From Candidatus Atabeyarchaeum deiterrae (lineage in GTDB: Archaea > Asgardarchaeota > Atabeyarchaeia > Atabeyarchaeales > Atabeyarchaeaceae): DNA of 64,000 nt. Location of the stretch: positions 2,112,001 through 2,176,000 of the forward strand of contig CP147780.1 in NCBI GenBank assembly GCA_037310415.1, written 5' to 3'. Under the pieces are notes generated by a model, which saw only the letters and a list, made by a program, of their open reading frames with translations, ran no database searches and was not told the origin of the DNA. Below are positions 7,848-22,603 of this stretch, piece by piece; positions within the stretch are counted from its first letter, which is position 1; every line of letters starts with the position of its first letter. The translations under genes and the position numbers were made by a program.

Positions 7848-9062
7848 TTAGCTTAGCTCGCGCGTTAGGGCGCTCTTCAGTTCTTTTGGTTGAGTTCTCA
7901 TCACGGTCAGACTAGAAACACTGTGGAAACTGAGGAACCTTCGCAAGGTCGCCACAAGTTCATTCATGAGTCCACCGCCAGCTTCTCTGTTGATCAAACT
8001 TAACGAGTTGATGATCATACTTTGGTTTTGCCTATCCAGTTTGGGGTCGATTCTTCCAACAAACTTCGTTCCATGTAGAATCGGCATGACATAATAACCG
8101 TAGATCCGTTTCTCAGGGACTTTATACACCTCCCATGAATAGTCAAAATCGAATATCTCTGAAATCACCTTGCGGTTCCACAAAAGGTTGTCAAGCGGTG
8201 CTATGAAGAAGACTTTTTCATCAATCGACGTTCTTGGATCCTCAAGCGAATTCAGCAACTCCCTCAGGACATAGTATTCCTGTCTCACGCCTTCGACTTT
8301 GACTGGACATAGTGTACCGCTCTCAACCATTTTCTTGACAATTGCTTTTCTTTGGAGAGCTTTCATTGGGAGCCAACCGAATCTCCAATCCCGCGTATCA
8401 ACCAAGCCGTATGCCCACATGTATTTTCGGATCATGAATTGTTCATATTCTTCTCTGGACGGCACTTCGATATCAGTGACTGATGGAACTATGTGGACTG
8501 TGAGGTCGTAGTACCGTCTATTTCCCTCGACATGGTGGATCATGAGTTCACCGCAGTCCCATAACAGGTTTAGTATGTTTGTCTCGAGCTTCCCTTTGAT
8601 CGCGCCACCCTGCTCAAGCTCTTGAGAAGAGAGTGGTCCATGCTTCTCGATTTCTGAGAGAACTTGGGCGATAGGCTTCTTTAGTTCTTTTCTTCTCGCT
8701 TTGACCCGGTCATAATAGGGAGACTGGAACTGCGATGTGTTTTGCATGCGATAGCGGAAGTAGCGAAGGTCGCTGAAAGGGATTATGGATTTCTCGTTGC
8801 ACCAGTACTCGAATAGTTTCCTGTCCTTGTAGAGCAATTCCTCCAAGCATGACGGACTATAGCTTCTGATTCTGTTGTGGAGAACCAAGTGATGGTTGCG
8901 ATGCACGACATTAATCGGATCTGTTTGTACACATTCGAGCCGAGTTACTGCTGATAGCGTTCCGTCCTTGCCGCTTTCTTCCTTTAAGAGGTTCTGTCTC
9001 TGAACAAGGAATCGTCTCGCATTCTCTTTTGAAATCTCCACCTGTTTCAAATCGACCACCAA
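7848..9062 (-). CDS. ycaQ: YcaQ/AlkZ-family (HTH_42) crosslink-repair DNA glycosylase
   Basis: QTDPINVV catalytic QxD motif, FEYW, APLDNLLW, WEVYKVPEKRIYGYYVMPIL. Confidence 0.88.
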   Translation of the reverse strand: MVVDLKQVEISKENARRFLVQRQNLLKEESGKDGTLSAVTRLECVQTDPINVVHRNHHLVLHNRIRSYSPSCLEELLYKDRKLFEYWCNEKSIIPFSDLRYFRYRMQNTSQFQSPYYDRVKARRKELKKPIAQVLSEIEKHGPLSSQELEQGGAIKGKLETNILNLLWDCGELMIHHVEGNRRYYDLTVHIVPSVTDIEVPSREEYEQFMIRKYMWAYGLVDTRDWRFGWLPMKALQRKAIVKKMVESGTLCPVKVEGVRQEYYVLRELLNSLEDPRTSIDEKVFFIAPLDNLLWNRKVISEIFDFDYSWEVYKVPEKRIYGYYVMPILHGTKFVGRIDPKLDRQNQSMIINSLSLINREAGGGLMNELVATLRRFLSFHSVSSLTVMRTQPKELKSALTRELS

Positions 9063-9274
9063 GACATTCCCTCACCAAAGACTGAATAGCCGATTCAAGT
9101 GTATTCCGCTGTACTCAAGTACATGATACTTTTCCTCTATAATACCCCCATAGAAGGACCCATTTCCTTGCCCTTCCAAGTATAGCTGGGAAAGGACTTT
9201 CGATAACATTGAGTGCCTCTTTCCCTCATGCCAACCTAACAAAGAATTAATACCTTCATGTTCAGAAGGATAGA

Positions 9275-10006
9275 ATGTCATATGATTGGGGCGTAAAAGA
9301 TTTGGCAAAGGGAATCGAGAAAGAAAACAAGCCAAAAGCATCTGTCGAAAAACGCGTGATAAAAGTAGGCAGGAAAGGACCCTATCTTGTTTCCGGTGGC
9401 ATTCCACTTGCCATTCAGATCATCGACACCGACGCCGAAGGAACTCCCATCGAATGGCGTACGGGAAAGAAATACCCTCCACAAGACGATTATTCTCTGT
9501 GCCGCTGCGGACAAACTAAGAACAAACCGTTTTGTGATGGAACACATGCAAAAGTCCATTTTGAAGGGACAGAGACAGCCAGCCAAGAGCCCTACGACGA
9601 CCGGGCTGAAGTGATCGATGGCCCCGCTCTGGTGCTAACAGATGCCGTGGATTTGTGTGCCCGTGCTCGATTCTGCCATCGAGCTGGAGAAATCTGGAAC
9701 CTCATTCCACTTTCAGGCGACCCGAAGCAGAGGATAATTGCTGCTAAAGAGGCTGGAGACTGCCCCTCGGGTCGCCTAGTAATCTGGGACAAGGAAACCA
9801 AGAGACAAATTGAGCCTGTGTTCGAACCGTCCATAGGATTAGTTGAGGGTCCCCGACCAGGTATGAGCGGCCCAGTCTGGGTGCGGGGAGGGATTCCGAT
9901 TGAATCTGGGAATGGCAGGATCTACGAAATCCGTAACCGCGTCACTCTTTGCGGGTGCGGCAGGTCCCGCAACAAACCTTTCTGCGACAGCAGTCACCTC
10001 ACATAA
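9275..10006 (+). CDS. CDGSH iron-sulfur domain protein (two CDGSH domains and a central ferredoxin-like domain)
   Basis: CRCGQTKNKPFCDGTH and CGCGRSRNKPFCDSSH; central CARARFC...CPSG. Confidence 0.9.
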   Translation: MSYDWGVKDLAKGIEKENKPKASVEKRVIKVGRKGPYLVSGGIPLAIQIIDTDAEGTPIEWRTGKKYPPQDDYSLCRCGQTKNKPFCDGTHAKVHFEGTETASQEPYDDRAEVIDGPALVLTDAVDLCARARFCHRAGEIWNLIPLSGDPKQRIIAAKEAGDCPSGRLVIWDKETKRQIEPVFEPSIGLVEGPRPGMSGPVWVRGGIPIESGNGRIYEIRNRVTLCGCGRSRNKPFCDSSHLT

Positions 10007-10237: not shown

Positions 10238-10648
10238 ATGTCAGGAGCAAGAAAGAAGATTAGGGTTCTTATCGCCAAGCCAGGTCTCGATGGACATGAC
10301 CGCGGAGCCAAAGTAGTCGCTCTAGCTCTTCGAGACGCGGGCATGGAAGTCATCTACACAGGAATAAGGCAAACTCCTGAGAAGATAGTTGAGGCAGCTA
10401 TCGAAGAAGACGTAGATGTCATCGGCCTCAGCATTCTTTCAGGAACGCATAAGCACTACTTCAAAAAGGTCATAGACCTGCTGAAGAAGAAAGGAGCAGA
10501 CGACATTGCCGTATTCGGCGGAGGAATAATACCAGAGAGTGACATCCCGGAACTCAAAGGGATGGGAGCAGACGAAGTGTTTGGACCCGGAACGCCAACA
10601 AGCGATATAGCTGACTACTTGAACAGGAAATTTGGGAAGAAAAAGTAG
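10238..10648 (+). CDS. Methylmalonyl-CoA mutase, cobalamin-binding small subunit
   Basis: [11 protein letters not shown]12-binding motif. Confidence 0.95.
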
Positions 10649-12353
10649 CAACTTGCCGGGAGGGACTCGTAACTTGTTCGATAAGAAGAAAGCGAATGGG
10701 ATCAAGGAAGCTCAGAAGAAATGGGAGGACACAACCGTCTCGAAAACCATTCAGAAGACGCCTGAGAGAAGGAAAGAATTCTTTTCCGCCTCAAGCATAC
10801 CAGTGAAGAGGCTTTACACTCCATCTGATATCGAGAAAATCGACTACATGCGGGACCTCGGCTTTCCCGGCGAGTTCCCTGCTACCAGAGGCGTTCAGCC
10901 TACCATGTACAGGGGTCGCTTCTGGACGATGCGCCAGTACGCCGGGTTCGGATCAGCCGAGGAGACGAATCAACGCTTCAAGTATCTCTTGAAGGAGGGA
11001 CAGACAGGTCTCAGCGTCGCATTTGATCTTCCCACCCAGATCGGCTATGACTCTGACCATGACCTTTCCTATGGGGAGGTTGGGAAGGTCGGCGTATCAA
11101 TAAACAGTATCGAGGACATGGAATTGCTCTTCCAGGGGATACCCCTCGACAAGGTAAGTACATCGATGACAATCAATGCCTCAGCCCCAGTGATCTTAGC
11201 CATGTACATGGTCGCGGCGGGAAAACAGGGAGTGGCTCCTTCAGCACTCCAAGGAACAGTACAAAACGATGTTCTGAAGGAGTACATTGCAAGGGGGACA
11301 TACATCTACCCTCCCAAGCCCTCAATGAGACTGGCAGTTGACATTATTGAATACTGCTTCAAGAACGTGCCCAAGTGGAATACTATCAGCATAAGCGGAT
11401 ACCACATCCGTGAAGCGGGTGCAACAGCGGTCCAAGAAGTTGCCTTCACTTTGGCTGACGGCATAGCATATGTTGAAGCTGCAGTATCAAGAGGACTCAA
11501 GGTTGACACCTTTGCGCCTCGACTCTCATTCTTCTTCGCTTCACATATGGATCTCCTCGAAGAGGTTGCCAAATTCCGCGCCGCCAGAAGACTATGGGCC
11601 AAGATCATGAAGGAGAGGTTTAGTGCTCAGAATCTTGAATCGATGATGCTGCGCTTTCATACGCAGACTGGCGGAGTTACTCTTACAGCTCAGCAGCCCG
11701 AGAACAATGTAGTTCGGGTGACGCTTCAGGCCCTTGCAGCTGTCTTAGGAGGAACCCAGTCTCTTCACACGAACTCCATGGATGAAGCTTTGGCACTGCC
11801 ATCTGAGAAGGCTGTCAGGATAGCTCTTAGAACGCAACAGATTCTCGCAAGTGAAAGTGGAACTACAAACTCGATTGATCCTCTTGCTGGATCCTTCTAC
11901 TTGGAGAGCCTCACCAACGAGATTGAGACCCAATCGATGGGATACATTGAGAAGATCGATGAAATGGGTGGAATGGTTACAGCCATAGAGAAAGGATATC
12001 CGCAGAAAGAGATACTTGGCAGCGCATACAAGTTCCAAAAGGAAGTCGAGAGCAAAGACAGAATCATCGTGGGCGTAAACGAGTATTCAATCAAGGAGGA
12101 ACTCACATGGGAAATCCTGCGAGTTAAGCCAGATGTTGAGGAGCGCCAGAGAAAGAGAGTGAAGGATCTCAAAGCAAGGAGGGACAGTGGCAAATCTCAG
12201 AAAGCATTGGAGCAAATCAAGATGGTGGCACAAGCGGACGAGAACTTGATGCCATCAATAATGGAAGCTGTCAAGGCATATGCGACAACTGGCGAGATTT
12301 GTGACGCGTTGAGAGAGGTCTATGGGGAGTATAGAGCACCAGAAATAATCTGA
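10632..12353 (+). CDS. Methylmalonyl-CoA mutase, catalytic large subunit (true start probably ~10674)
   Basis: [43 protein letters not shown]. Confidence 0.95.
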
Positions 12354-12391
12354 AGGAAAGCTTAGGATGGCGAAACCCCACGATCAGTAGG

Positions 12392-12865
12392 ATGGAACTG
12401 AGGAAAGCAACAAGTCGCGATCTACCTCGGATAGAAAGACTCCTTAAGGGGAACGAGCTGCCTTTTGAAGATATTCGATCGAAGATGGACTTCATCTTCT
12501 TGGCACGAGTGAATGCAGAAGATGTGGGAATAGGTGGAGTAGAAATCCGCGGAAAATGTGGACTCCTTCGCTCAGTTGTAGTTGAAAAACCACACCGTGG
12601 AGAAGGATACGGAAGAATGCTCTGCGACAAGTTGGTCGAATATGCAAAGACTCAGGGAGTTGGAGAGCTGTACCTTCTGACCATGACAGCGGAGCGCTTC
12701 TTTCTAAAAATGGGGTTTAGGAGGATCAACCGAGACAATGTTCCCATGGACATCCAGAACACAACTGAGTTTAGCGAACTATGCCCTGTGTCATCAGTCT
12801 GCATGAGAAAGATTGTCTCGAGTGGTAACTTTGAACGAGCAACAATAGCAGGAAAAAATAGGTGA
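12392..12865 (+). CDS. GNAT N-acetyltransferase (ArsN2-like)
   Basis: LLRSVVV..HRGEGYG, LYLLT, EFSELCPVSS. Confidence 0.85.
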   Translation: MELRKATSRDLPRIERLLKGNELPFEDIRSKMDFIFLARVNAEDVGIGGVEIRGKCGLLRSVVVEKPHRGEGYGRMLCDKLVEYAKTQGVGELYLLTMTAERFFLKMGFRRINRDNVPMDIQNTTEFSELCPVSSVCMRKIVSSGNFERATIAGKNR

Positions 12866-12896
12866 AGAGTCCCGGTGCAATTGGGACCGTTTTCTC

Positions 12897-13502
12897 TTAT
12901 CGGATGCGTGCTCCGCACTTCGGGCAAAACATCATATCTGGTTCCACTCTCTCCCCGCATTCAGGACAGAATCTGGCTACAGGCTCTGGGACTCTGCCTT
13001 CTCTCGCTACAGGTTCACGAGAAAGAACCTCCGGTCTTTTGCGAGGAGGTATCGGTTCATACACAAGCGCCAGTATGCCTCCGATCAATCCAAATATGAA
13101 CGCTGCTCCGCCAAGCACGCCGAAGACAAGTATGATGACACCGTACTTTGTATGTTCCATAGGGTTATTGTTCAGGCTCCTAGCAGCAGCAAGCACGGCT
13201 AATGAAGCAATCATTAGCCATCCTGAAAGCACTAGTCCAATGGTCAGAATGAAGTTGAAGTAGCTAGCCCAGAAGCTGCCCGGGACGTAGCCGTATTGGG
13301 TTGCCATGTAAAGCGGTGCGACGAAAGAATAGAGCACTACAATGCCCACAAGTAGCCCGAGTATTCCCCCGATTACCGAAACAACGTATGCTGCAGTCGG
13401 TTTCTCCTCCACTGCGACGCTACTCAACTCTATCACCCATCTCTTGATTGATAGCTTGTTTGTACTTAAAGATATCGTTTTCAACGATTGAAAGCTTACC
13501 AC
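12897..13502 (-). CDS. Membrane protein with C-terminal zinc ribbon; true start probably ~13427
   Basis: EKPTAAYVVSVIGGIL, hydrophobic helices, CPEC...CPKC. Confidence 0.75.
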   Translation of the reverse strand: MVSFQSLKTISLSTNKLSIKRWVIELSSVAVEEKPTAAYVVSVIGGILGLLVGIVVLYSFVAPLYMATQYGYVPGSFWASYFNFILTIGLVLSGWLMIASLAVLAAARSLNNNPMEHTKYGVIILVFGVLGGAAFIFGLIGGILALVYEPIPPRKRPEVLSREPVAREGRVPEPVARFCPECGERVEPDMMFCPKCGARIR

Positions 13503-13700
13503 GCTTTAATGACGGAGTAGTTGGTCAATTTTCTCGGTTATCTTCTGAGGCATAATTGCTCTCAGTGAACGGAGAATGACCAAGGAATTCCTCGCTTGCG
13601 GGAGTGATCCTCTCTTCGATAAAGACTTATACCTAATTCCTCTATTGAAACTCATCTATGTTGACAGTTCTCGCACGAATTGACGAGAGGTTAGAGCACC

Positions 13701-14102
13701 ATGTTTAGAAAAATCAGTCATATCGGCATAGCTGTGAGAAATATGGATGAGGCGCTGAAGCTGTATTCTGAGACACTTGGTCTGAAGGTGTCTGGCATTG
13801 AGACCGTTGAAGAGCAGAAAGTGAAATCCGCGATGATCCCCATAGGCGAATCGAGAATAGAACTCATGGAGTCAACCGATCCGGAGGGGCCAGTAGGGAA
13901 GTTCATAACGAAAAGAGGCGAAGGGATGCACCACATATCACTCGAAGTTGATGACATTGACAAAGAGCTCGCCAAACTCAGCAAAGCAGGCATCGAATTG
14001 ATCGACAAGAAGCCCAGATTGGGCGCAGGTGGAAATAAGATAGCGTTTGTCCATCCGAAGAGCATGCACGGAGTATTGCTAGAACTCACCTCGAGAAAGT
14101 GA
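13701..14102 (+). CDS. mce: Methylmalonyl-CoA epimerase
   Basis: HIGIAV, GEGMHHI, FVHPKS.GVLLEL; mutase context. Confidence 0.93.
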   Translation: MFRKISHIGIAVRNMDEALKLYSETLGLKVSGIETVEEQKVKSAMIPIGESRIELMESTDPEGPVGKFITKRGEGMHHISLEVDDIDKELAKLSKAGIELIDKKPRLGAGGNKIAFVHPKSMHGVLLELTSRK

Positions 14103-14221
14103 GGTGCGGAATTCCTGAGACAGAAGGCATATTTAATATCATCCCCGTTTTTCCTTTTTGAACCGAAAAAGGCGTGGCAATCCACACCTCATGCGACCCT
14201 GAACAGATCACTCGCTAAGGG

Positions 14222-15091
14222 ATGCGTGATTCCCTATTGAATGGCAGCGAACGTAGTCCCCAGAATTCTTCATTTGGAGATCAGATCTCGCTAGAGGCCA
14301 TCAAGAGGAATTTTCACTCAAAGATCATTGGTTGCCATATAGTCCTTATTGATGAGACTACCTCAACAAATGATGAAGCCAAAAAGCTGGCTGTGAAAAA
14401 CGCGAATGAAGGAACCGTCGTTCTGGCAAGAGTACAAAGCGCAGGGAGAGGACGCTTCGGAAGAAAATGGCACTCACCCGAAGGCGGCCTCTATATGTCA
14501 GTCATCCTGAGACCCAATGCAAATCTACCTATTCAGAAGATAACTCTGATGACCGGGCTATCCGTAGCCAAGACCTTGAGGAGACTCTACAAGATTGAAG
14601 CAGTTCTTAGGTGGCCAAACGACGTTCTCGTCGGAGAAAGCAAGATTTGCGGAATACTTGCAGAGGGAGCTTTCGAAGGAGACACACCCCTGTACGTTAT
14701 CATCGGTATCGGGTTAAACGTCAACGTCGATACTAACACGCTTCCAAAGGAAGCAGGACTTCGAGCTACGTCGCTAGAAACCCTTCTTGGGGAAAGGGTT
14801 CTCTCAAACACCCTGATCAGCGAACTTCTCAAAACAATCGACCAAGATTACAGGTTCTTCATAGGTGGGAAAGATGAAAAGCTGTGGACGAAGTATCGGA
14901 AATTATGCAAAACAATCGGATCAGAAGTCCGAGTTGAAGTCTGCAGAGGTGAAGTCTATGAGGGATATGCCGAAGGGCTATCGGATGAAGGGGGCTTGAT
15001 CCTGAGAACACGAGATGGATCCAGAGTTACGATTCTGAGTGGCGACTGCGTGCACCTAAGAACTATGAACAAGCACAAAAAAGGATATTAA
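14222..15091 (+). CDS. birA: Biotin-protein ligase (no N-terminal HTH)
   Basis: STND, QSAGRGRFGRKW, WPND, KICGIL, GIGLNV. Confidence 0.95.
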   Translation: MRDSLLNGSERSPQNSSFGDQISLEAIKRNFHSKIIGCHIVLIDETTSTNDEAKKLAVKNANEGTVVLARVQSAGRGRFGRKWHSPEGGLYMSVILRPNANLPIQKITLMTGLSVAKTLRRLYKIEAVLRWPNDVLVGESKICGILAEGAFEGDTPLYVIIGIGLNVNVDTNTLPKEAGLRATSLETLLGERVLSNTLISELLKTIDQDYRFFIGGKDEKLWTKYRKLCKTIGSEVRVEVCRGEVYEGYAEGLSDEGGLILRTRDGSRVTILSGDCVHLRTMNKHKKGY

Positions 15092-15182
15092 GAAAGAAGT
15101 AGTGAAAGTCACCACGACACGTTCATTTCTCACCGATTCAACATCTTACTGAGTGTGACTTTGAGAGGTGTAAGTCCGAAAC

Positions 15183-16736
15183 ATGTCATCAATTGAAGAC
15201 AAAATTAGGAAACTCAAAGAAATGAAAGAACAAAGCAAGCTGGGCGGCGGGAAAGACAGAATAGAGAAGCAGCATGAGTCAGGGAAGCTAACCGCTAGGG
15301 AGAGACTAGAGGCGCTGCTCGACACAGGAACATTTGTGGAAATAGACCCATATGTAAGACATCAAAGCACCAATTTCGGAGCAGAAAAGAATCGACCTCT
15401 CGGCGACGCCGTGGTCACAGGCTGGGGAAGAATGAATGGCAGACTGGTCTACGTCTTCTCCCAAGACTTCACGGTGTTCGGAGGATCCCTTGGTGAGGCT
15501 TTCGCTCAGAAAGTCTGCAAGATTATGGATCTGGCTGCAAGAAATGGCGCACCAGTGATAGGATTGAATGATGGCGCCGGAGCGAGAATACAGGAAGGAG
15601 TCTCAAGCTTGGTTGCCTATGCAGACATTTTTTACAGGAATGTTCTTTCTTCGGGTGTGGTTCCTCAAATATCGGCCATCATGGGGCCCTGCGCTGGGGG
15701 TGCAGTCTATTCGCCTGCGATGACTGATTTCATAATCATGGTTGAAGGAATATCATACATGCACATCACGGGACCTGATGTAGTAAAAACAGTCACCAAG
15801 GAAGATGTCACCTCTGAGCAGCTCGGTGGGGCTCAGGTTCACATGGAGAAAAGCGGAGTCGCCCACTTTTCGGCGAAAACAGAACAAGAGTGTTTCGATA
15901 TAATCAGAAAACTAATGGGTTTTATCCCCTCAAACAACATGGAAGACCCGCCGATAGCTGAGGCGACTGACGATCCAAATAGAATGGATGAAGAATTGAA
16001 TCACATAGTCCCAATAGATCCAAACAAGCCATACGACATGCGGGACGTGGTCAGACATATCGTTGATGACGGTGACTTCTTTGAAGTTCAGCCTCTGTGG
16101 GCTGAGAACATTATCATCGGCTTCGCTAGGTTAAACGGCAGACCGATTGGTATAGTCGGGAACAATCCGAGAGCACTTGCTGGCACACTTGACATCGACT
16201 CATCCACTAAAGGTGCCCGGTTCGTGCGGTTCTGTGACTGCTTCAACATACCCATACTGACTTTCGAAGACGTACCAGGATTCCTCCCCGGAACAGCACA
16301 GGAACATGGAGGCATAATCAGGCATGGATCAAAGCTACTCTATGCTTTCTGTGAAGCAACTGTTCCACGCCTAACCGTGATAACAAGAAAAGCGTATGGT
16401 GGAGCATTTGACGTGCTGAACTCGAAGAATGTCGGAGCAGACTACAATGTAGCCTGGCCCGGGGCAGAGCTGGCAGTCATGGGACCAGAGGGCGCAGTCA
16501 ACATAATCTTCAGAAAAGAAATCGAAAAGGCAGCCGACCCCCAGAAGGAAAGAGAAAGACTTGTGAAAGAATACCGTGAGAAGTTTGCGAATCCCTACAT
16601 AACGGCAGAAAGAGGCTATATCGACGACGTTATAGAACCGAAAGAAACTAGGCCCAAGCTAATCAATGCACTGGAGACTCTTGCAAACAAGCGGACAAGC
16701 AGACCAGCAAGAAAGCACGGCAACATACCCCTGTAG
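15183..16736 (+). CDS. Acyl-CoA carboxyltransferase beta subunit (PccB / transcarboxylase 12S-like)
   Basis: [42 protein letters not shown]. Confidence 0.95.
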
Positions 16737-16847
16737 ATTGCGCTCTCGGCATGATGGTTTTTTCCGCGAATATCGAGACGGGGATCGCAGTGCGAAATGG
16801 TAGGTTCGGTGCCGCGTTGTGATTCCTCAGCCTCATTTTTGAGGGGA

Positions 16848-17156
16848 TCAAGCTTCCCCGTTTAGCGTTTGTTTCCAGCCGCATGATTCACACAGTATTT
16901 CTCCAGTTCTTGTTTTGGTTCTCACAGAACTAGTCCTGGGTCTCTTGTCGATCGAAGCTGCAATAGTCTTTCTGCCGCATTTCGGACAGCCGAGTCTGGA
17001 GATATCTGTCGAGTAAAGGTGGCAATTGGAGCAGCGAAAAATCACTCCATATTCCAACATTTCGGCGGCAACAGCTGCCATAGGATGCAAAGGACCTACG
17101 GAAGCAGTCACGTTTCCTCCACATTCGGAACATTTGAGACTCTTCATGTTGGGCAT
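16848..17156 (-). CDS. Small zinc-finger protein (four CxxC pairs)
   Basis: CSEC, CSNC, CPKC, CESC. Confidence 0.65.
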   Translation of the reverse strand: MPNMKSLKCSECGGNVTASVGPLHPMAAVAAEMLEYGVIFRCSNCHLYSTDISRLGCPKCGRKTIAASIDKRPRTSSVRTKTRTGEILCESCGWKQTLNGEA

Positions 17157-17262
17157 GTATTTTTGTGAGCGGTATATTAGACTATGGGTTCAGACACGCA
17201 GAAGAAGACGAAAGTTCAAATATCCTAATTGAACCAATACATTGGCAAGAAAGGGATAGTCG

Positions 17263-19797
17263 ATGAAAGGAACTCCCTCAACGTTTTGGAGCGTAAGTGG
17301 TCGCGACCTTCTCAAAGATCTCGAAACCAGACCCCAGGGATTAACAAGTGAAGAAGCGAAGCAGAGACTAGAGACCTACGGCTTCAATCTCCTTAAGGCA
17401 AGAAAGAGGACTGATGCACCCGCGTTACTCCTTGCTCAATTCAAGTCCCCTATCATTCTGATTCTTCTATTCGCGGCAGTATTGTCACTCTTCTTGGGTG
17501 GTCAAACAGGCGATCAGACTAGCTCCCTCATTATCTTGGCAATCGTATTCATTAGCAGCCTCCTTGGATTTTGGCAGGAAAGGGGAGCAACGAATGCGGT
17601 CAAGAAGTTGCTCTCCATAGTTCAGATAAAGTCCGTCGTTATGCGAGATGGAAATCCTAAGGTGATTCCAGCGGAAACGATTGTACCTGGGGACATTGTG
17701 ATTCTATCTGCGGGAGCAAGCGTCCCTGGAGACTGCCTAATTCTGAAGTCGAAGGACCTTTTCGTCGATGAGGCAACCTTGACGGGCGAGACCTACCCTG
17801 TCGAGAAAACTGTTGGAGTGCTGGCGCCTATAACAGCTCTCAGTCAGCGCACAAATGCGCTCCTAATGGGGACACACGTAGTGAGCGGAACAGGGCAAGC
17901 ACTCGTCGTTCGCACGGGAACAGAGACGGAATTTGGCAAGATCTCGGAAAGGCTGAGGCTGCGGCAACCGGAAACAGATTTCGAGCGAGGCGTTAGGCGA
18001 TTTGGCTACCTCCTCATGGAGGTCACTCTCATCTTGGTGTTCGCCATCTTCGCGATCAATGTCTATATGGCGCGCCCCGTATTGGATTCCTTTCTATTTG
18101 CATTAGCACTTGCGATTGGATTGACTCCACAATTGCTTCCGGCAATAATCAGCATCAACCTTTCACATGGTGCCAAACGTATGTCACTCGCCAACGTGAT
18201 CGTCAAACGCTTAGCTTCTATCGAAAACTTCGGTAGCATGAATGTGCTCTGCTCAGACAAGACCGGAACCTTAACTGAAGGAGTGATGCGTCTTCAAAGT
18301 TGCGTTGATGTTGAAGGCAATAAGAGCGAGAAAGTTCTGCTTTACGCCTACCTCAATGCTTTCTTTGAGACTGGTTTCGGAAATCCTATTGATGAAGCAA
18401 TAAGAGGCTACAAGAAGCTGCGCGTCTCAGACTACTCAAAACTGGATGAGGTGCCGTACGACTTCTTCAGAAAGAGACTGAGCATCCTTGTTTCCAAAGA
18501 GAGTACGCATCTGATGGTGACCAAGGGATACATTCAAAGTGTGCTCGACATTTGTTCATCAGCAGAAATGCCTCAAGGAAGAATCATCGAAATAACTTCT
18601 ATCCGAGAGCAGGTAATGAAACGTTTCAATGACGTTGCCAGCAAAGGATTGCGAGCGATTGCCGTGGCATATAAGGACATTGGCTCCCAAGCCATCATCG
18701 GCAAGGAAGACGAAAAAGGCATGACTTTCTTGGGATTGGTCATTTTTCTAGACCCACTGAAACAGGGTGCCAGCCGAACTGTCAAGCACCTGAAGGATCT
18801 TGGGATTTCGCTGAAGATCATTACAGGAGATAATCCTATTGTTGCAGCTTATGCTGCTGGAAAGGTCGGATTGCATAAACCAAGGATCTGCACTGGTTCA
18901 CAGCTACGCCAAATGAGTGACGAGGCACTTCTCAGGCAAGTGAATGATGTTGATGTGTTCGCCGAGATTGAGCCGAATCAGAAAGAGCGTATCATCATAG
19001 CTCTAAGAAAGGCGGGAAATGTAGTAGGCTTTGTGGGAGACGGAATAAACGATGCCTCAGCTCTCCATGCAGCCGACGTGAGCATCTCGGTCGAATCTGC
19101 GGTGGACGTTGCAAAGGAGGCTGCCGACATTGTCCTACTCAAGAAGGATTTGGATGTCCTCGTGGACGGGGTCCGAGAAGGCAGATCAACTTTCGCCAAC
19201 ACCTTGAAATACGTGTTTATGGCGACAAGCGCCAATTTCGGAAACATGTTCAGTATGGCTGGGGCGTCGCTCTTCTTAGAGTTCCTCCCATTGTTCCCTA
19301 AGCAGATACTTCTCATGAACCTAATGACAGATTTCCCCGAGATGACTATTGCCACGGATAAAGTGGACAAAGAACTCATCGAAAAACCCAGGCGCTGGGA
19401 CATCAAGTTTATCCGCAGGTTCATGCTGGCATTCGGTGTTCTAAGCTCAGTCTTTGACTACATAACCTTTGGCGTACTTCTGTTCTTGCTCATGGCTACT
19501 CCCGACCAATTCAGGACAGGTTGGTTTATTGAATCCGTTGTCTCCGCAGCCGTCGTCGTACTCGTTGTCAGAACTAGGAAGCCTTTCATCAAAAGTAGAC
19601 CAGGAAAGTACTTGCTCCTGACGACAATGATGATCGTCCTAGTGGCGATGATTCTTCCATTCATCACGCTTGGAGCGCTCTTTGGTTTCCAGCCTGTTCA
19701 AACTTGGTTCATTCTAGTGATGGCGATGATCGTGGCTCTATACGTCATTGGAGCCGAAATACTCAAGCATTTCTTCTACAGAAGATATACAACCTAA
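17263..19797 (+). CDS. mgtA: Magnesium-translocating P-type ATPase
   Basis: LTGE, TPQLLP, DKTGT, PYDFFRKR, TGD, GDGIND, SANFGNMFS. Confidence 0.92.
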   Translation: MKGTPSTFWSVSGRDLLKDLETRPQGLTSEEAKQRLETYGFNLLKARKRTDAPALLLAQFKSPIILILLFAAVLSLFLGGQTGDQTSSLIILAIVFISSLLGFWQERGATNAVKKLLSIVQIKSVVMRDGNPKVIPAETIVPGDIVILSAGASVPGDCLILKSKDLFVDEATLTGETYPVEKTVGVLAPITALSQRTNALLMGTHVVSGTGQALVVRTGTETEFGKISERLRLRQPETDFERGVRRFGYLLMEVTLILVFAIFAINVYMARPVLDSFLFALALAIGLTPQLLPAIISINLSHGAKRMSLANVIVKRLASIENFGSMNVLCSDKTGTLTEGVMRLQSCVDVEGNKSEKVLLYAYLNAFFETGFGNPIDEAIRGYKKLRVSDYSKLDEVPYDFFRKRLSILVSKESTHLMVTKGYIQSVLDICSSAEMPQGRIIEITSIREQVMKRFNDVASKGLRAIAVAYKDIGSQAIIGKEDEKGMTFLGLVIFLDPLKQGASRTVKHLKDLGISLKIITGDNPIVAAYAAGKVGLHKPRICTGSQLRQMSDEALLRQVNDVDVFAEIEPNQKERIIIALRKAGNVVGFVGDGINDASALHAADVSISVESAVDVAKEAADIVLLKKDLDVLVDGVREGRSTFANTLKYVFMATSANFGNMFSMAGASLFLEFLPLFPKQILLMNLMTDFPEMTIATDKVDKELIEKPRRWDIKFIRRFMLAFGVLSSVFDYITFGVLLFLLMATPDQFRTGWFIESVVSAAVVVLVVRTRKPFIKSRPGKYLLLTTMMIVLVAMILPFITLGALFGFQPVQTWFILVMAMIVALYVIGAEILKHFFYRRYTT

Positions 19798-19860
19798 GGA
19801 ACACTGATCTGAATGGGGCTGGCCAATTCCGTTAGCGCACTATTTTATGACTATCTGCCA

Positions 19861-20025
19861 CTACTTTCTGTGCCCACGCAAGGCAGGGACAGCAACAATT
19901 GCCGCAATAACACCAACGCATATGCCAACGATTAATAGTCCAAAAGTTATTGTTCTTGCAAGAGGTATTGAACTAAGCTTTGAGTGCGATCCGTCCTTCG
20001 AAAAAGGTATAAATAATGCGTGCAA
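19861..20025 (-). pseudogene. Possible gene remnant or microprotein: TM helix plus basic tail
   Basis: My translation: ...SSIPLARTITFGLLIVGICVGVIAAIVAVPALRGHRK*, which looks like a C-terminal membrane anchor. Confidence 0.3.
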
Positions 20026-20102
20026 TCCTTTACCTTCTTCTGGCTACTTCAGTCGGACTTCTGAGAGTGTCATGATCCGAATACCTCGGGAGGTAACCTA
20101 GA

Positions 20103-21635
20103 TTGTTCATCGGCAAAGCTCTGAAAATAACTGACACTGTCCTAAGGGACGCACACCAATCTCTATTGGCAACAAGGATGAAGACTGAGGACATGTTGCC
20201 AATAACCGAGAAACTTGACCAAGTTGGGTACTGGTCACTCGAAATGTGGGGAGGAGCAACTTTTGATACATGCTTGCGGTTTCTTAATGAAGATCCCTGG
20301 GAGAGACTGCGGAAACTGAAAAAGGCTATGCCGAATACGCCTATGCAGATGCTGCTGAGAGGACAGAACATTGTTGGTTATCGTCACTATGCTGACGATG
20401 TAGTTGAGAAGTTTGTCACCAAAGCGGCTGAGAATGGAATAGATGTTTTCAGGATATTCGACGCTGTGAATGACATAAGGAACCTTGAGAAAGCCATAAG
20501 AGTGGCCAAGAAAATTGGTGCGAGAGTCGAGGGTGCTCTGTCTTACACGATCAGCCCAGTCCATGACGTAAGACTTTTTGTAAACTTTGCGAAGAAACTT
20601 CAGGAACTGAACGTGGACACCATCTGCATCAAGGACATGGCAGGTCTTCTATCGCCCACAGAAGCCAAGGCTCTGGTAACAGGGTTGAAGAAGGAGATTG
20701 ACTTGCCAATCCATCTTCATACTCACTTCACAAGCGGGATGGCGATAGCCACGTGCTGGGAGGCAATAAGGGCAGGGGTTGACATCGTTGATACCGCAAT
20801 ATCATCCATGGCACTGGCCACCTCTCAGCCTCCTACTGAACCAATAGTGTATATGGTCAAAGGAACTCCGCGGGACACTGGCATGAATCTTGCTCTGCTC
20901 AGCGAGATATCAGATTACTTCGCCGAGATTAGAAAGAAATACACAAAGTTTGAGAGCACATTGCCCGGAGTTGACACTAATGTGCTTGTCTATCAAATTC
21001 CTGGAGGTATGACGACAAACTTGGTCAACCAATTGAGAGAGCAGAATGCGCTCGGAAAGCTTGGCGAAGTATTGAGGGAAGTTCCTATTGTGAGGAAAGA
21101 ACTAGGATACCCTCCACTTGTCACTCCAACTTCCCAAATAGTGGGAACCCAAGCAGTGCTGAACGTGGTCACTGGCGAACGGTATAAGATAATACCGAAT
21201 GAGGTTAAGCAGTACGTCAAAGGATACTACGGCGCATCTCCGGCTCCTATTGACGAGAAGGTCAGAAGAAAGGTGATAGGGAACGAAGAGCCAATAACAG
21301 GAAGACCAGCCGACCTGCTCAAGCCAGAGTTCGAAAAAGCCCGCAAGGAGCTAGATGGGAGAACAAGAAGCGAAGAAGACATCCTGTCATATGTCTTGTT
21401 CCCGCAGGTAGCTATAAGCTTCTTTGAGATGAGAGATTTAAGAGAGAAGGGTCTAGGTAGCAGTGAATCTGCTATGGCGGCGCTTGCGGCGGCAATTGCA
21501 GATGAATCAGTAAGAAGAGCTAATGCCCCACACACGACACAGCTTAAACTAGACAAGAGAGCAATATTCTCTCCAAGCCCGTGGGCGCTAGCGGGAAGAC
21601 AGGAACTCATGAGGTCAAGAACGATGACGTTTTAA
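20103..21635 (+). CDS. Pyruvate/oxaloacetate carboxyltransferase (transcarboxylase 5S / PycB / OadA-like) without a fused biotinyl domain
   Basis: RDAHQSL, WGGATFD, IKDMAG, HLHTH, PGGM, LGYPPLVTPTSQIVG; SD GGAGGT upstream. Confidence 0.93.
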   Translation: MFIGKALKITDTVLRDAHQSLLATRMKTEDMLPITEKLDQVGYWSLEMWGGATFDTCLRFLNEDPWERLRKLKKAMPNTPMQMLLRGQNIVGYRHYADDVVEKFVTKAAENGIDVFRIFDAVNDIRNLEKAIRVAKKIGARVEGALSYTISPVHDVRLFVNFAKKLQELNVDTICIKDMAGLLSPTEAKALVTGLKKEIDLPIHLHTHFTSGMAIATCWEAIRAGVDIVDTAISSMALATSQPPTEPIVYMVKGTPRDTGMNLALLSEISDYFAEIRKKYTKFESTLPGVDTNVLVYQIPGGMTTNLVNQLREQNALGKLGEVLREVPIVRKELGYPPLVTPTSQIVGTQAVLNVVTGERYKIIPNEVKQYVKGYYGASPAPIDEKVRRKVIGNEEPITGRPADLLKPEFEKARKELDGRTRSEEDILSYVLFPQVAISFFEMRDLREKGLGSSESAMAALAAAIADESVRRANAPHTTQLKLDKRAIFSPSPWALAGRQELMRSRTMTF

Positions 21636-21642
21636 GAAATAT

Positions 21643-22260
21643 GTGACTACACTACATGGAGGCTCTTGCTCGTTGAAATTCAAGCTGACGATCGACGGTA
21701 GAACGCATGAGGTCGAAGTGGCTCAACAGGACTCTCACTCAAGTCCCTCCCTAGTTACGGTTAACATCGATGGCAAGACATTTGCAGTGTCAATTGTTGA
21801 AAGAGATGAGACAAACAGAACGATTAGAGTCAAAGTTGGCGAGAAGCAATTCAAGGTCGGTTTGGAAAAAGACAGTCTTACCAACGGAAGACCATCAGAC
21901 GTCAACATCAATGATATTCCGTTCCGGATTCAGGTTGCCAACCTTGGTGTAGCCAGACCAGCAGTCAACCTCGCAGTAGACGGTCAAACGCAATCGAAAG
22001 TAGGGACACCGACTACGAAGGCTGCGTCAAGACAAGCAGCGTCTGGAGAGAAAGCAATAAGGCCGCCCATGCCGGGGAAGATAATCTCGGTTAAGGTGAG
22101 ACAAGGAGACGTGGTGAAGGCTGGCGACGTCGTGCTAATTCTGGAAGCTATGAAGATGGCCAATGAAATAACGTCACCATTCGATGGCAAGATCAAGGAA
22201 GTGCGTGTCTCGAACGGTCAGTCAGTTGCCCCGGATGACTCATTGATCGTTATAGAATAG
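21643..22260 (+). CDS. Biotin carboxyl carrier protein (likely start ~21673)
   Basis: EAMKM biotinylation motif; PMPGKI. Confidence 0.93.
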   Translation: MTTLHGGSCSLKFKLTIDGRTHEVEVAQQDSHSSPSLVTVNIDGKTFAVSIVERDETNRTIRVKVGEKQFKVGLEKDSLTNGRPSDVNINDIPFRIQVANLGVARPAVNLAVDGQTQSKVGTPTTKAASRQAASGEKAIRPPMPGKIISVKVRQGDVVKAGDVVLILEAMKMANEITSPFDGKIKEVRVSNGQSVAPDDSLIVIE

Positions 22261-22267
22261 GAGACTT

Positions 22268-22603
22268 CTATCTTTCTTCTCTGATAAGATACGTCGTCGT
22301 GTGAAGAACTCCTTCTATCGTTCTCATCCGCGCTGTGATGTCGCGCAGTTTTATGAGGTCATTGACATCAAGTTCTGCAATGAAGTCAACATCACCGTAG
22401 ACGAGTGAGACCTTTTTCACGCCTTTGAGCTTTGCAATCTCTTCCTTTACTGTGGACTCACTTCCAGAGTTCACCTTTCCTGTAACATACGCCATTACCA
22501 TTCTGAGCCCTCTCCTGCAACACACAGGGTCCCTTTGAATCTGTTCCGGTGTTAAGCCCGTTCTTGCGTCAAACGATATCATAAAGATGATTCTGCTTAT
22601 CAA
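22268..22603 (-). CDS. Stand-alone Lrp/AsnC ligand-binding (RAM) domain protein; likely start ~22501
   Basis: AYV...VYGDVDFIAEL...IEGV..TTT pattern. Confidence 0.8.
   Translation of the reverse strand: MISRIIFMISFDARTGLTPEQIQRDPVCCRRGLRMVMAYVTGKVNSGSESTVKEEIAKLKGVKKVSLVYGDVDFIAELDVNDLIKLRDITARMRTIEGVLHTTTYLIREER

Follow-up and report, generated by a model that had tools for sequence, protein, structure and literature searches.

A putative methylmalonyl-CoA:pyruvate transcarboxylase encoded with methylmalonyl-CoA mutase and epimerase in an Atabeyarchaeia genome

Does a cluster of biotin-enzyme genes that adjoins a methylmalonyl-coenzyme A (CoA) mutase in an Asgard archaeon encode an ATP-independent transcarboxylase, or does it encode parts of ATP-dependent carboxylases or of decarboxylases? 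The question is raised by a stretch of 64,000 nucleotides (hereafter the window; bases 2,112,001-2,176,000) of the single 2,756,679-bp contig of Candidatus Atabeyarchaeum deiterrae, in which positions 10238-22260 hold genes for two mutase subunits, an epimerase, a BirA-type biotin-protein ligase, an acyl-CoA carboxyltransferase, a pyruvate carboxyltransferase and a free biotin carboxyl carrier protein (BCCP). An earlier reading of the bare sequence (the original prediction) named these seven genes and proposed that they serve ATP-independent carboxyl transfer in an Asgard-type archaeon. All seven are present where it placed them, on the plus strand and with matches to domain profiles (Table 1), and the host was assigned correctly: the nearest named relative of the pyruvate carboxyltransferase (82% identity) is encoded in the Atabeyarchaeia genome CP147779.1 (complete, 2.81 Mb; hereafter the sister genome). 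Overall, gene content and sequence comparison suggest that the cluster is probably the methylmalonyl-CoA branch of a Wood-Werkman-type pathway and that its biotin enzyme is a methylmalonyl-CoA:pyruvate transcarboxylase (EC 2.1.3.1), the activity and substrates of which we infer.

The composition of the locus resembles that of the transcarboxylase of Propionibacterium freudenreichii subsp. shermanii, an enzyme of three parts (12S, 5S and 1.3S) with a 5S subunit that lacks a biotinyl domain, a free carrier with an MKM motif, no biotin carboxylase or pump subunit, and a tie to the mutase/epimerase route. The proposed 12S + 5S + 1.3S-like set is indeed complete here, with a Carboxyl_trans subunit (12S-type), a 5S-type subunit without a biotinyl domain (no PF00364) and a free EAMKM carrier, and the solved P. 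shermanii 5S (1RQB, 486 bits) and 12S (1ON3, 581 bits) align with the two carboxyltransferases over the full length of the latter. The motifs RDAHQS, KDMAG, HLHTH and VTPTSQ of the 5S-type subunit line up with those of the beta chain of a two-subunit pyruvate carboxylase (5KS8), Vibrio cholerae OadA (2NX9) and 1RQB; the whole catalytic region is aligned, and by comparison with these solved enzymes the metal-site and catalytic motifs are intact. Each component occurs exactly once in the genome, namely a sole Carboxyl_trans gene, a single PYC_OADA gene for the 5S-type subunit and one carrier, which is the only biotinyl protein besides two apparently lipoyl-type Biotin_lipoyl matches in frames of 437 and 172 aa. 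The EAMKM biotinylation motif is invariant in 51 homologs of the carrier.

The absence of other biotin partners carries the argument further. A six-frame hidden Markov model (HMM) search of the whole single-contig genome (97% complete by marker genes), with each family also detected in control genomes, returned neither Biotin_carb_C (PF02785) nor Biotin_carb_N (PF00289), for both of which the controls were positive, and no OAD_beta (PF03977; OadB/MmdB/GcdB), which was found in the Bacteroides and Thermotoga controls. OAD_gamma (PF04277; OadG/MmdD) was also not found in the genome; this family is short and only weakly detectable, and therefore it is the absence of the beta subunit that carries weight. 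The whole-genome check for AccC/PycA and OadB/MmdB had been set in advance as decisive, and its empty result favors the transcarboxylase reading; it also extends to the entire genome the original prediction's statement that the window holds neither an ATP-grasp biotin carboxylase nor the beta subunit of a Na+ pump. Because the genome has no other partner, only the two carboxyltransferases could load and unload the carrier biotin, which would make the enzyme a transcarboxylase by definition.

The same pattern extends to related genomes. In 151 evenly sampled genomes of the Asgard phylum, the 5S gene is present in all three members of family f1, to which the genome studied here belongs, in 25 of 26 members of f6, in 17 of 19 members of f12 and in the single member of f17. 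Biotin carboxylase, in turn, is absent from f1 (0/3), f6 (0/26) and f12 (0/19) and occurs in the majority of genomes of other families, as in f4 (12/14), f13 (4/4) and f21 (6/7), families in which the carboxyltransferase is present and 5S is absent. Both biotin carboxylase and OadB are missing from 45 of the 46 sampled genomes that carry 5S, which, together with the empty search of the genome itself, supports ATP-independent carboxyl transfer at the level of gene content. The exception is G025 (f17), a 4.4-Mb genome with 9% contamination that is alone in the sample in combining 5S, biotin carboxylase and OAD_beta (contigs C12, C21 and C11); because of the contamination, some of these genes may be foreign. 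Since the sampled genomes are related and many are incomplete, we take these counts as a consistent pattern, not as a statistic.

Gene order is conserved as well. The mutase, epimerase, ligase, carboxyltransferase, 5S and carrier genes lie together in the sister genome, in G074 (f6) and in G011 (f12); the carrier gene directly follows 5S in G074 and G011, and the G011 cluster also holds MeaB. Beyond the Asgard archaea, ligase, carboxyltransferase, 5S and carrier genes are found together in a metagenome-assembled genome (MAG) of Methanomassiliicoccales, and a looser version with a mutase nearby is found in an Anaerolineae MAG. This synteny across genomes is not a chance arrangement.

The mutase itself points to methylmalonyl-CoA. 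In alignments, the cluster mutase carries RQY..., LSVAFD and ...IAR, matching the methylmalonyl-CoA mutases of P. shermanii (1REQ) and human (2XIJ), whereas I, D and Q occupy the corresponding sites in 4R3U, a 2-hydroxyisobutyryl-CoA mutase. In P. shermanii numbering, we take the signature sites to be Tyr89 and Arg207, which presumably bind the substrate carboxylate. The best overall PDB match of the cluster mutase is nevertheless 4R3U, because the two share a split architecture; the methylmalonyl-type Tyr/Arg signature sets the cluster enzyme apart from the isobutyryl- and 2-hydroxyisobutyryl-CoA types. The sole mutase paralog in the genome lies in a separate locus (844688-848022) in which a large subunit (844,688-846,469; 57% identical) is followed by a B12 subunit and then by a gene that is probably MeaB, as named in the KEGG table of the sister genome. 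F and Q at the substrate positions of this paralog point to a mutase of the isobutyryl-CoA type. The large subunit in the sister genome has 561 aa compared with 573 aa here, and the true start of the cluster gene is therefore possibly slightly downstream.

Several observations weigh against reading the cluster as a transcarboxylase pathway. The 12S-type subunit scores 826 bits against TIGR01117, the mmdA subfamily and its best NCBIfam model, below the cut-off of 998.8, and PccB/MmdA-type chains (630-708 bits) exceed 1ON3 among its PDB matches. The 5S-type subunit scores 602 bits against the model of the Propionibacterium 5S (NF008984; cut-off 827) and higher for PycB (782 bits) and OadA (735 bits); it falls below the curated cut-offs of all three and so is an equivalog of none, and its best PDB match is 5KS8_C (583 bits). 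Close homologs bear the database names "propionyl-CoA carboxylase beta" and "oxaloacetate decarboxylase alpha". When 43 Asgard carboxyltransferases are placed on a tree (quick search, midpoint rooting, all rows kept), sequences from 5S-type and biotin-carboxylase-type genomes are clustered by context, with 3 changes compared with 14.5 in shuffles, but the two contexts interleave. The 12S and 5S genes are not adjacent, being separated by a P-type ATPase gene and a small divergent gene, and may therefore not form a single operon. Lastly, fumarate reduction would rest on a soluble thiol-type enzyme in a non-methanogen.

These similarity scores bear on how the claim should be worded. Sorting 12S from PccB and MmdA, or 5S from OadA and PycB, was attempted, and similarity alone does not separate them. 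Since the contexts are interleaved on the tree, the carboxyltransferase sequence is not a marker of function, and the subfamily has evidently swapped partners a few times. With both subunits under the equivalog cut-offs, the claim is that the archaeal enzyme works like a transcarboxylase, not that it is orthologous to that of Propionibacterium, from which it also differs in its archaeal host and in a 5S-type subunit nearer to PycB and OadA.

What the scores leave to be weighed are other ways of using the same subunits. The two carboxyltransferases could be halves of ATP-dependent carboxylases, that is, of a propionyl- or acetyl-CoA carboxylase and a two-subunit pyruvate carboxylase, served by a divergent ATP-grasp biotin carboxylase encoded elsewhere. 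The affinity of 5S and carrier to PycB (model NF006761, discussed below) and of 5S to 5KS8 would fit such an arrangement, as would the KEGG-style annotation of the sister genome, which calls the carboxyltransferase PccB, and there are possible candidates for the missing enzyme: of the five CPSase_L_D2 matches in the genome, two are domains of CarB and one is SucC, and the remaining two are ATP-grasp_3 proteins, 429 and 422 aa long, that weakly resemble the AccC core. Against AccC models, for which the cut-offs are 600-770 bits, however, the two ATP-grasp_3 proteins score only 40-64 bits, and they have neither Biotin_carb_N nor Biotin_carb_C. The 429-aa protein does not track the biotin enzymes; it is present in Asgard families without carboxyltransferase, 5S or carrier (f7, 5/5; f9, 24/25; f18, 6/6; f20, 3/3) and missing from half of the f6 genomes, and we rejected it as a dedicated biotin carboxylase on account of this wide occurrence. 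The 422-aa protein resembles tyramine-glutamate ligase and adjoins a hydantoinase-like gene. A canonical biotin carboxylase, moreover, is easily detected in other Asgard families and never in f1, f6 or f12. We therefore regard halves of ATP-dependent carboxylases as very unlikely.

Biotin-dependent decarboxylases of methylmalonyl-CoA and oxaloacetate, in which carboxybiotin would lose its carboxyl group either non-enzymatically or through a membrane subunit that went unrecognised, whether or not ions are pumped, deserve equally little credence. The Na+-translocating decarboxylases (MmdABCDE, OadABG) do have a homologous carboxyltransferase and an MmdC-like carrier: among NCBIfam models, the carboxyltransferase matches mmdA best, the closest solved relative of the carrier is a Pyrococcus "methylmalonyl-CoA decarboxylase gamma chain", the 5S homologs are labeled OadA by JGI, and membrane proteins occur in or near some clusters. 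The membrane beta subunit (PF03977) that defines them and the gamma subunit (PF04277), by contrast, were not found in this genome, and OAD_beta exceeds its cut-off in only one of the 151 sampled genomes, the contaminated G025. The membrane proteins do not amount to a conserved partner, since those of the three clusters compared are mutually unrelated (DUF4064 with a zinc ribbon here, a different transmembrane protein in the sister genome, an RDD protein in f12). A role as Na+ pump was considered for the P-type ATPase and rejected; the protein is MgtA-type, and the cluster of the sister genome, although collinear in other respects, does not contain it, which makes it an unrelated insertion rather than a pump for decarboxylation, and the genome encodes close paralogs of it (47% and 42% identity) as well as more distant P-type ATPases. 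Without a pump, decarboxylation would dissipate free energy, and 5S would have no role. A further alternative accepts the transcarboxylase and gives it a main task other than propionate, either biosynthetic oxaloacetate or another acyl-CoA pair such as malonyl-CoA/acetyl-CoA. Depending on the enzyme, the substrate of carboxyltransferases of the 12S subfamily is acetyl-, propionyl- or butyryl-CoA, and this broad range, like the mixed contexts of the tree, would allow it; the linkage to a methylmalonyl-type mutase and epimerase, however, is kept in three Asgard families, and an ATP-type phosphoenolpyruvate (PEP) carboxykinase (PEPCK_ATP) and malic enzyme provide other links between C3 and C4 compounds, so that anaplerosis would be independent of the transcarboxylase. 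We consider a main role outside propionate metabolism improbable, and a methylmalonyl-CoA:pyruvate transcarboxylase remains the reading that we prefer.

It is worth noting that the carrier differs from the classical 1.3S subunit. The latter is a protein of 123 aa. P. shermanii 1.3S has only a short N-terminal segment before its biotinyl domain, whereas the archaeal carrier has 195-205 aa and a predicted eight-stranded barrel. Homologs of the carrier start with MKF or LKF, and GGAGG lies about 12 nt upstream of TTG 21673, and for these reasons the start is probably at this codon (195 aa) and not at GTG 21643; residue numbers given here follow the 205-aa reading from GTG. The predicted layout consists of a BT-like barrel (residues 10-101), a disordered linker (102-135) and the biotinyl domain. 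The first 100 residues contain four hairpin repeats that give eight predicted strands, in alignments of 51 and 45 sequences and with pLDDT of ~80-90. When the barrel alone was searched with Foldseek, the top matches were all BT domains of biotin carboxylases, led by human propionyl-CoA carboxylase (PCC) alpha (7YBU/8ZUZ; E 2e-4 to 1e-3, TMq 0.70, 101 columns) and followed by acetyl-CoA carboxylase (ACC) and 3-methylcrotonyl-CoA carboxylase (MCC). A search independent of Foldseek gave the BT domain of yeast ACC (5csa_B) as the best match, with Z 7.3, a root-mean-square deviation of 3.1 and 88 aligned residues, the next match having Z 5.1. Taken by itself, a Z of 7 is middling, but the two methods agree and the barrel directly precedes the biotinyl domain, as in the PCC, MCC and ACC enzymes, which makes the predicted BT-like assignment credible.

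The barrel may be completed by the 5S-type subunit. In the structures of PCC and MCC, the BT domain has a central helix inside its barrel, and in solved BT enzymes helix and barrel belong to one chain that also bears the biotin carboxylase. Such a helix is absent from the predicted carrier barrel, which stands alone on the carrier. In a model of the complex of 5S (residues 290-510) with the carrier (1-110), the 5S helix 455-470 lies inside the barrel and contacts inward-facing residues of all eight strands. The model has an ipSAE of 0.78, compared with 0.00 for the best of 3 controls, at least 80% of the contacts agree between runs, and partner pLDDT is at least 73; the mark that it passes was attained by 58 of 80 solved complexes and by 2 of 110 mismatched pairs. 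Because single-chain BT domains have been solved, this pass may reflect resemblance to their structures, and the model may therefore be read as a likeness to a BT domain split over two chains, not as proof of binding. The PycB model NF006761 is also covered from one end to the other by the two open reading frames (ORFs), which match its positions 3-450 and 458-590 and look, on this basis, like a PycB that has been split within its BT-like domain. The two-subunit pyruvate carboxylase (PycA + PycB; Methylobacillus flagellatus, 5KS8) is collinear with 5S and carrier in its order of carboxyltransferase, BT-like domain and BCCP, and differs in having its PycB in one gene and in the presence of PycA, which this genome does not encode.

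The modeling thus predicts that a split BT-like domain tethers the carrier to 5S, and this module could dock on the 12S core in the way that the BT domain of propionyl-CoA carboxylase docks on PccB. W494 and R499 in the tail of 5S are invariant among 41 homologs without a biotinyl domain, and A459, A460, A462, S492 and P493 nearly so. The C-terminal SPW...R motif (5S residues 492-499; window 21579-21599) lies outside the predicted contact with the carrier. It could be a docking site for 12S. Tentatively, we propose that the three Asgard families, together with related Thermoplasmatota and Bathyarchaeia-type genomes, have a distinct architecture in which 5S would give the helix and the carrier the barrel, so that a two-chain BT module, instead of a short 1.3S peptide, would dock 5S and carrier on the 12S hexamer. 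Such a complex may be a structural intermediate between the two-subunit pyruvate carboxylases and decarboxylases and the classical transcarboxylase, and the sole biotin enzyme of these archaea.

Each step between oxaloacetate and succinyl-CoA has a candidate gene, and so has the conversion of propionyl-CoA to propionate. A fumA-fumB-tfrA-tfrB cluster lies at 688523-693531 of the genome (~688.5-693.5 kb) with no adjoining membrane anchor gene; TfrA scores 723 bits against a cut-off of 718, and TfrB is also above its equivalog cut-off. TfrAB represents a methanogen-type thiol:fumarate reductase in a non-methanogen. Also encoded elsewhere are SucCD, a malate/sulfolactate-type dehydrogenase of the Ldh_2 family, the malic enzyme and the PEPCK_ATP mentioned above, and three ADP-forming acyl-CoA synthetases (ACD-type), while a malate dehydrogenase of the LDH/MDH type (PF02866) and archaeal PEP carboxylase (PF14010) were not found in the genome.

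In the mechanism that we propose, the cluster ligase would biotinylate the carrier; 12S would move the carboxyl group of (S)-methylmalonyl-CoA to the carrier biotin, with release of propionyl-CoA, and 5S would pass it from carboxybiotin to pyruvate, giving oxaloacetate. The overall transfer would be reversible and would take no ATP, bicarbonate or Na+ gradient. Oxaloacetate would be converted to malate by the candidate Ldh_2-family dehydrogenase, malate to fumarate by FumAB, fumarate to succinate by the soluble TfrAB, presumably with thiols, and succinate to succinyl-CoA by SucCD; the B12 mutase and the epimerase would connect succinyl-CoA with (S)-methylmalonyl-CoA, and propionyl-CoA would yield propionate and ATP through one of the three ADP-forming synthetases. 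With a soluble fumarate reduction, the route would be an electron sink and not a form of respiration. We lean slightly toward a flux in the direction of propionate formation, as such a sink. A full reverse run through succinate oxidation looks unfavorable; a partial reverse, from propionyl-CoA and oxaloacetate to succinate and pyruvate, is plausible, and consumption of propionyl-CoA, with ATP-free carboxylation of amino-acid-derived propionyl-CoA to succinate, is possible as the prevailing direction, if a somewhat doubtful one.

The other genes of the locus (Table 1) include four that the original prediction did not list, namely the GNAT and P-type ATPase genes and the minus-strand ORFs 12897-13502 and 16848-17156. 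The GNAT gene occupies the same position, between mutase and epimerase, in both Atabeyarchaeia genomes. The 4xCxxC protein has no match to an NCBIfam family; in the sister genome, the space between 12S and 5S holds a comparable ORF whose cysteines follow the same pattern. Two further frames were examined and set aside. One, of 84 aa directly before 5S (19847-20101, plus strand), was considered as a subunit like OadG, MmdD or epsilon; it has no family match, an odd composition and no alignment in the sister genome, and is probably not a gene. The other (12862-13263, plus strand, 133 aa) also lacks a family match, overlaps a better minus-strand gene and looks spurious. The Lrp/AsnC-domain protein downstream of the carrier is a possible regulator. 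Upstream, window positions 7848-10006 encode two proteins without apparent link to the cluster: a DNA glycosylase of the AlkZ-like type on the minus strand, and one that combines two CDGSH iron-sulfur domains with a divergent 4Fe-4S domain.

Table 1. Genes in and beside the cluster, with positions in the window.
Feature	Position	Strand	Evidence
Methylmalonyl-CoA mutase, small B12-binding subunit, 136 aa	10238-10648	+	PF02310, 104.6 bits; TIGR00640, 172.7 bits; syntenic in sister genome
Methylmalonyl-CoA mutase, large subunit, 573 aa from TTG	10632-12353	+	PF01642, 768 bits
GNAT N-acetyltransferase	12392-12865	+	PF00583, PF13508; NF040501 (ArsN2-like), 143 bits vs cut-off 125
Membrane/zinc-ribbon ORF (DUF4064 + zinc ribbon)	12897-13502	-	
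Methylmalonyl-CoA epimerase, 133 aa	13701-14102	+	TIGR03081, 164.5 bits vs cut-off 114.95; PF13669
Biotin-protein ligase (BirA-type catalytic + C-terminal domains), 289 aa	14222-15091	+	PF03099, PF02237; TIGR00121, 199.7 vs cut-off 83.1
12S-type acyl-CoA carboxyltransferase, 517 aa	15183-16736	+	PF01039, 665 bits, full length
Small 4xCxxC zinc-ribbon protein, 102 aa, divergent, between 12S and 5S	16848-17156	-	Cysteine pattern
Mg2+-type (IIIB) P-type ATPase, 844 aa	17263-19797	+	TIGR01524, 779 bits vs cut-off 610.75
5S-type pyruvate/oxaloacetate carboxyltransferase, 510 aa, without biotinyl domain	20103-21635	+	PF00682 (HMGL-like) + PF02436 (PYC_OADA)
Biotin carboxyl carrier, EAMKM motif	21643-22260 (probable start TTG 21673, 195 aa)	+	PF00364, 74 bits
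Small Lrp/AsnC ligand-binding-domain protein, convergent to carrier gene	22268-22603	-	PF01037; same place in sister genome

A transcarboxylase-linked propionate pathway has already been inferred for Asgard archaea by Imachi et al. (2020; PMC7015854), who scored "propionate" from genes for methylmalonyl-CoA decarboxylase, BCCP and pyruvate carboxylase; that study did not explicitly exclude biotin carboxylase or OadB across whole genomes, and the Atabeyarchaeia were then not known. The main text of the Atabeyarchaeia paper (PMC11291895) does not discuss propionate, methylmalonyl-CoA or biotin, and its supplementary table (K01966, K01848, K01849) lists genes of the sister genome as propionyl-CoA carboxylase beta chain, BirA and mutase. 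Full-text literature searches found no paper with a biochemical description of an archaeal transcarboxylase. The idea of a transcarboxylase is therefore not new for Asgard archaea as a group; what sequence comparison well supports as new here is its extension to a member of the Atabeyarchaeia, possibly with a distinctive junction between carrier and 5S.

If the enzyme works as proposed, these Asgard archaea would couple pyruvate/oxaloacetate to methylmalonyl-CoA/propionyl-CoA at zero ATP cost, and they could dispose of reducing equivalents as propionate, or turn amino-acid-derived propionyl-CoA into succinate with a gain of ATP. The predicted split BT-like domain would offer a testable model for the assembly of such complexes. 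Among the sampled Asgard families, the transcarboxylase-type set and the ATP-dependent carboxylase set almost never occur together, and their distribution may thus serve as a simple genomic marker of two metabolisms. A pathway of this kind would bear on what Asgard archaea exchange with their partners in wetland soils and sediments and, to the extent that a link to syntrophy holds, on syntrophy-based models of eukaryogenesis.

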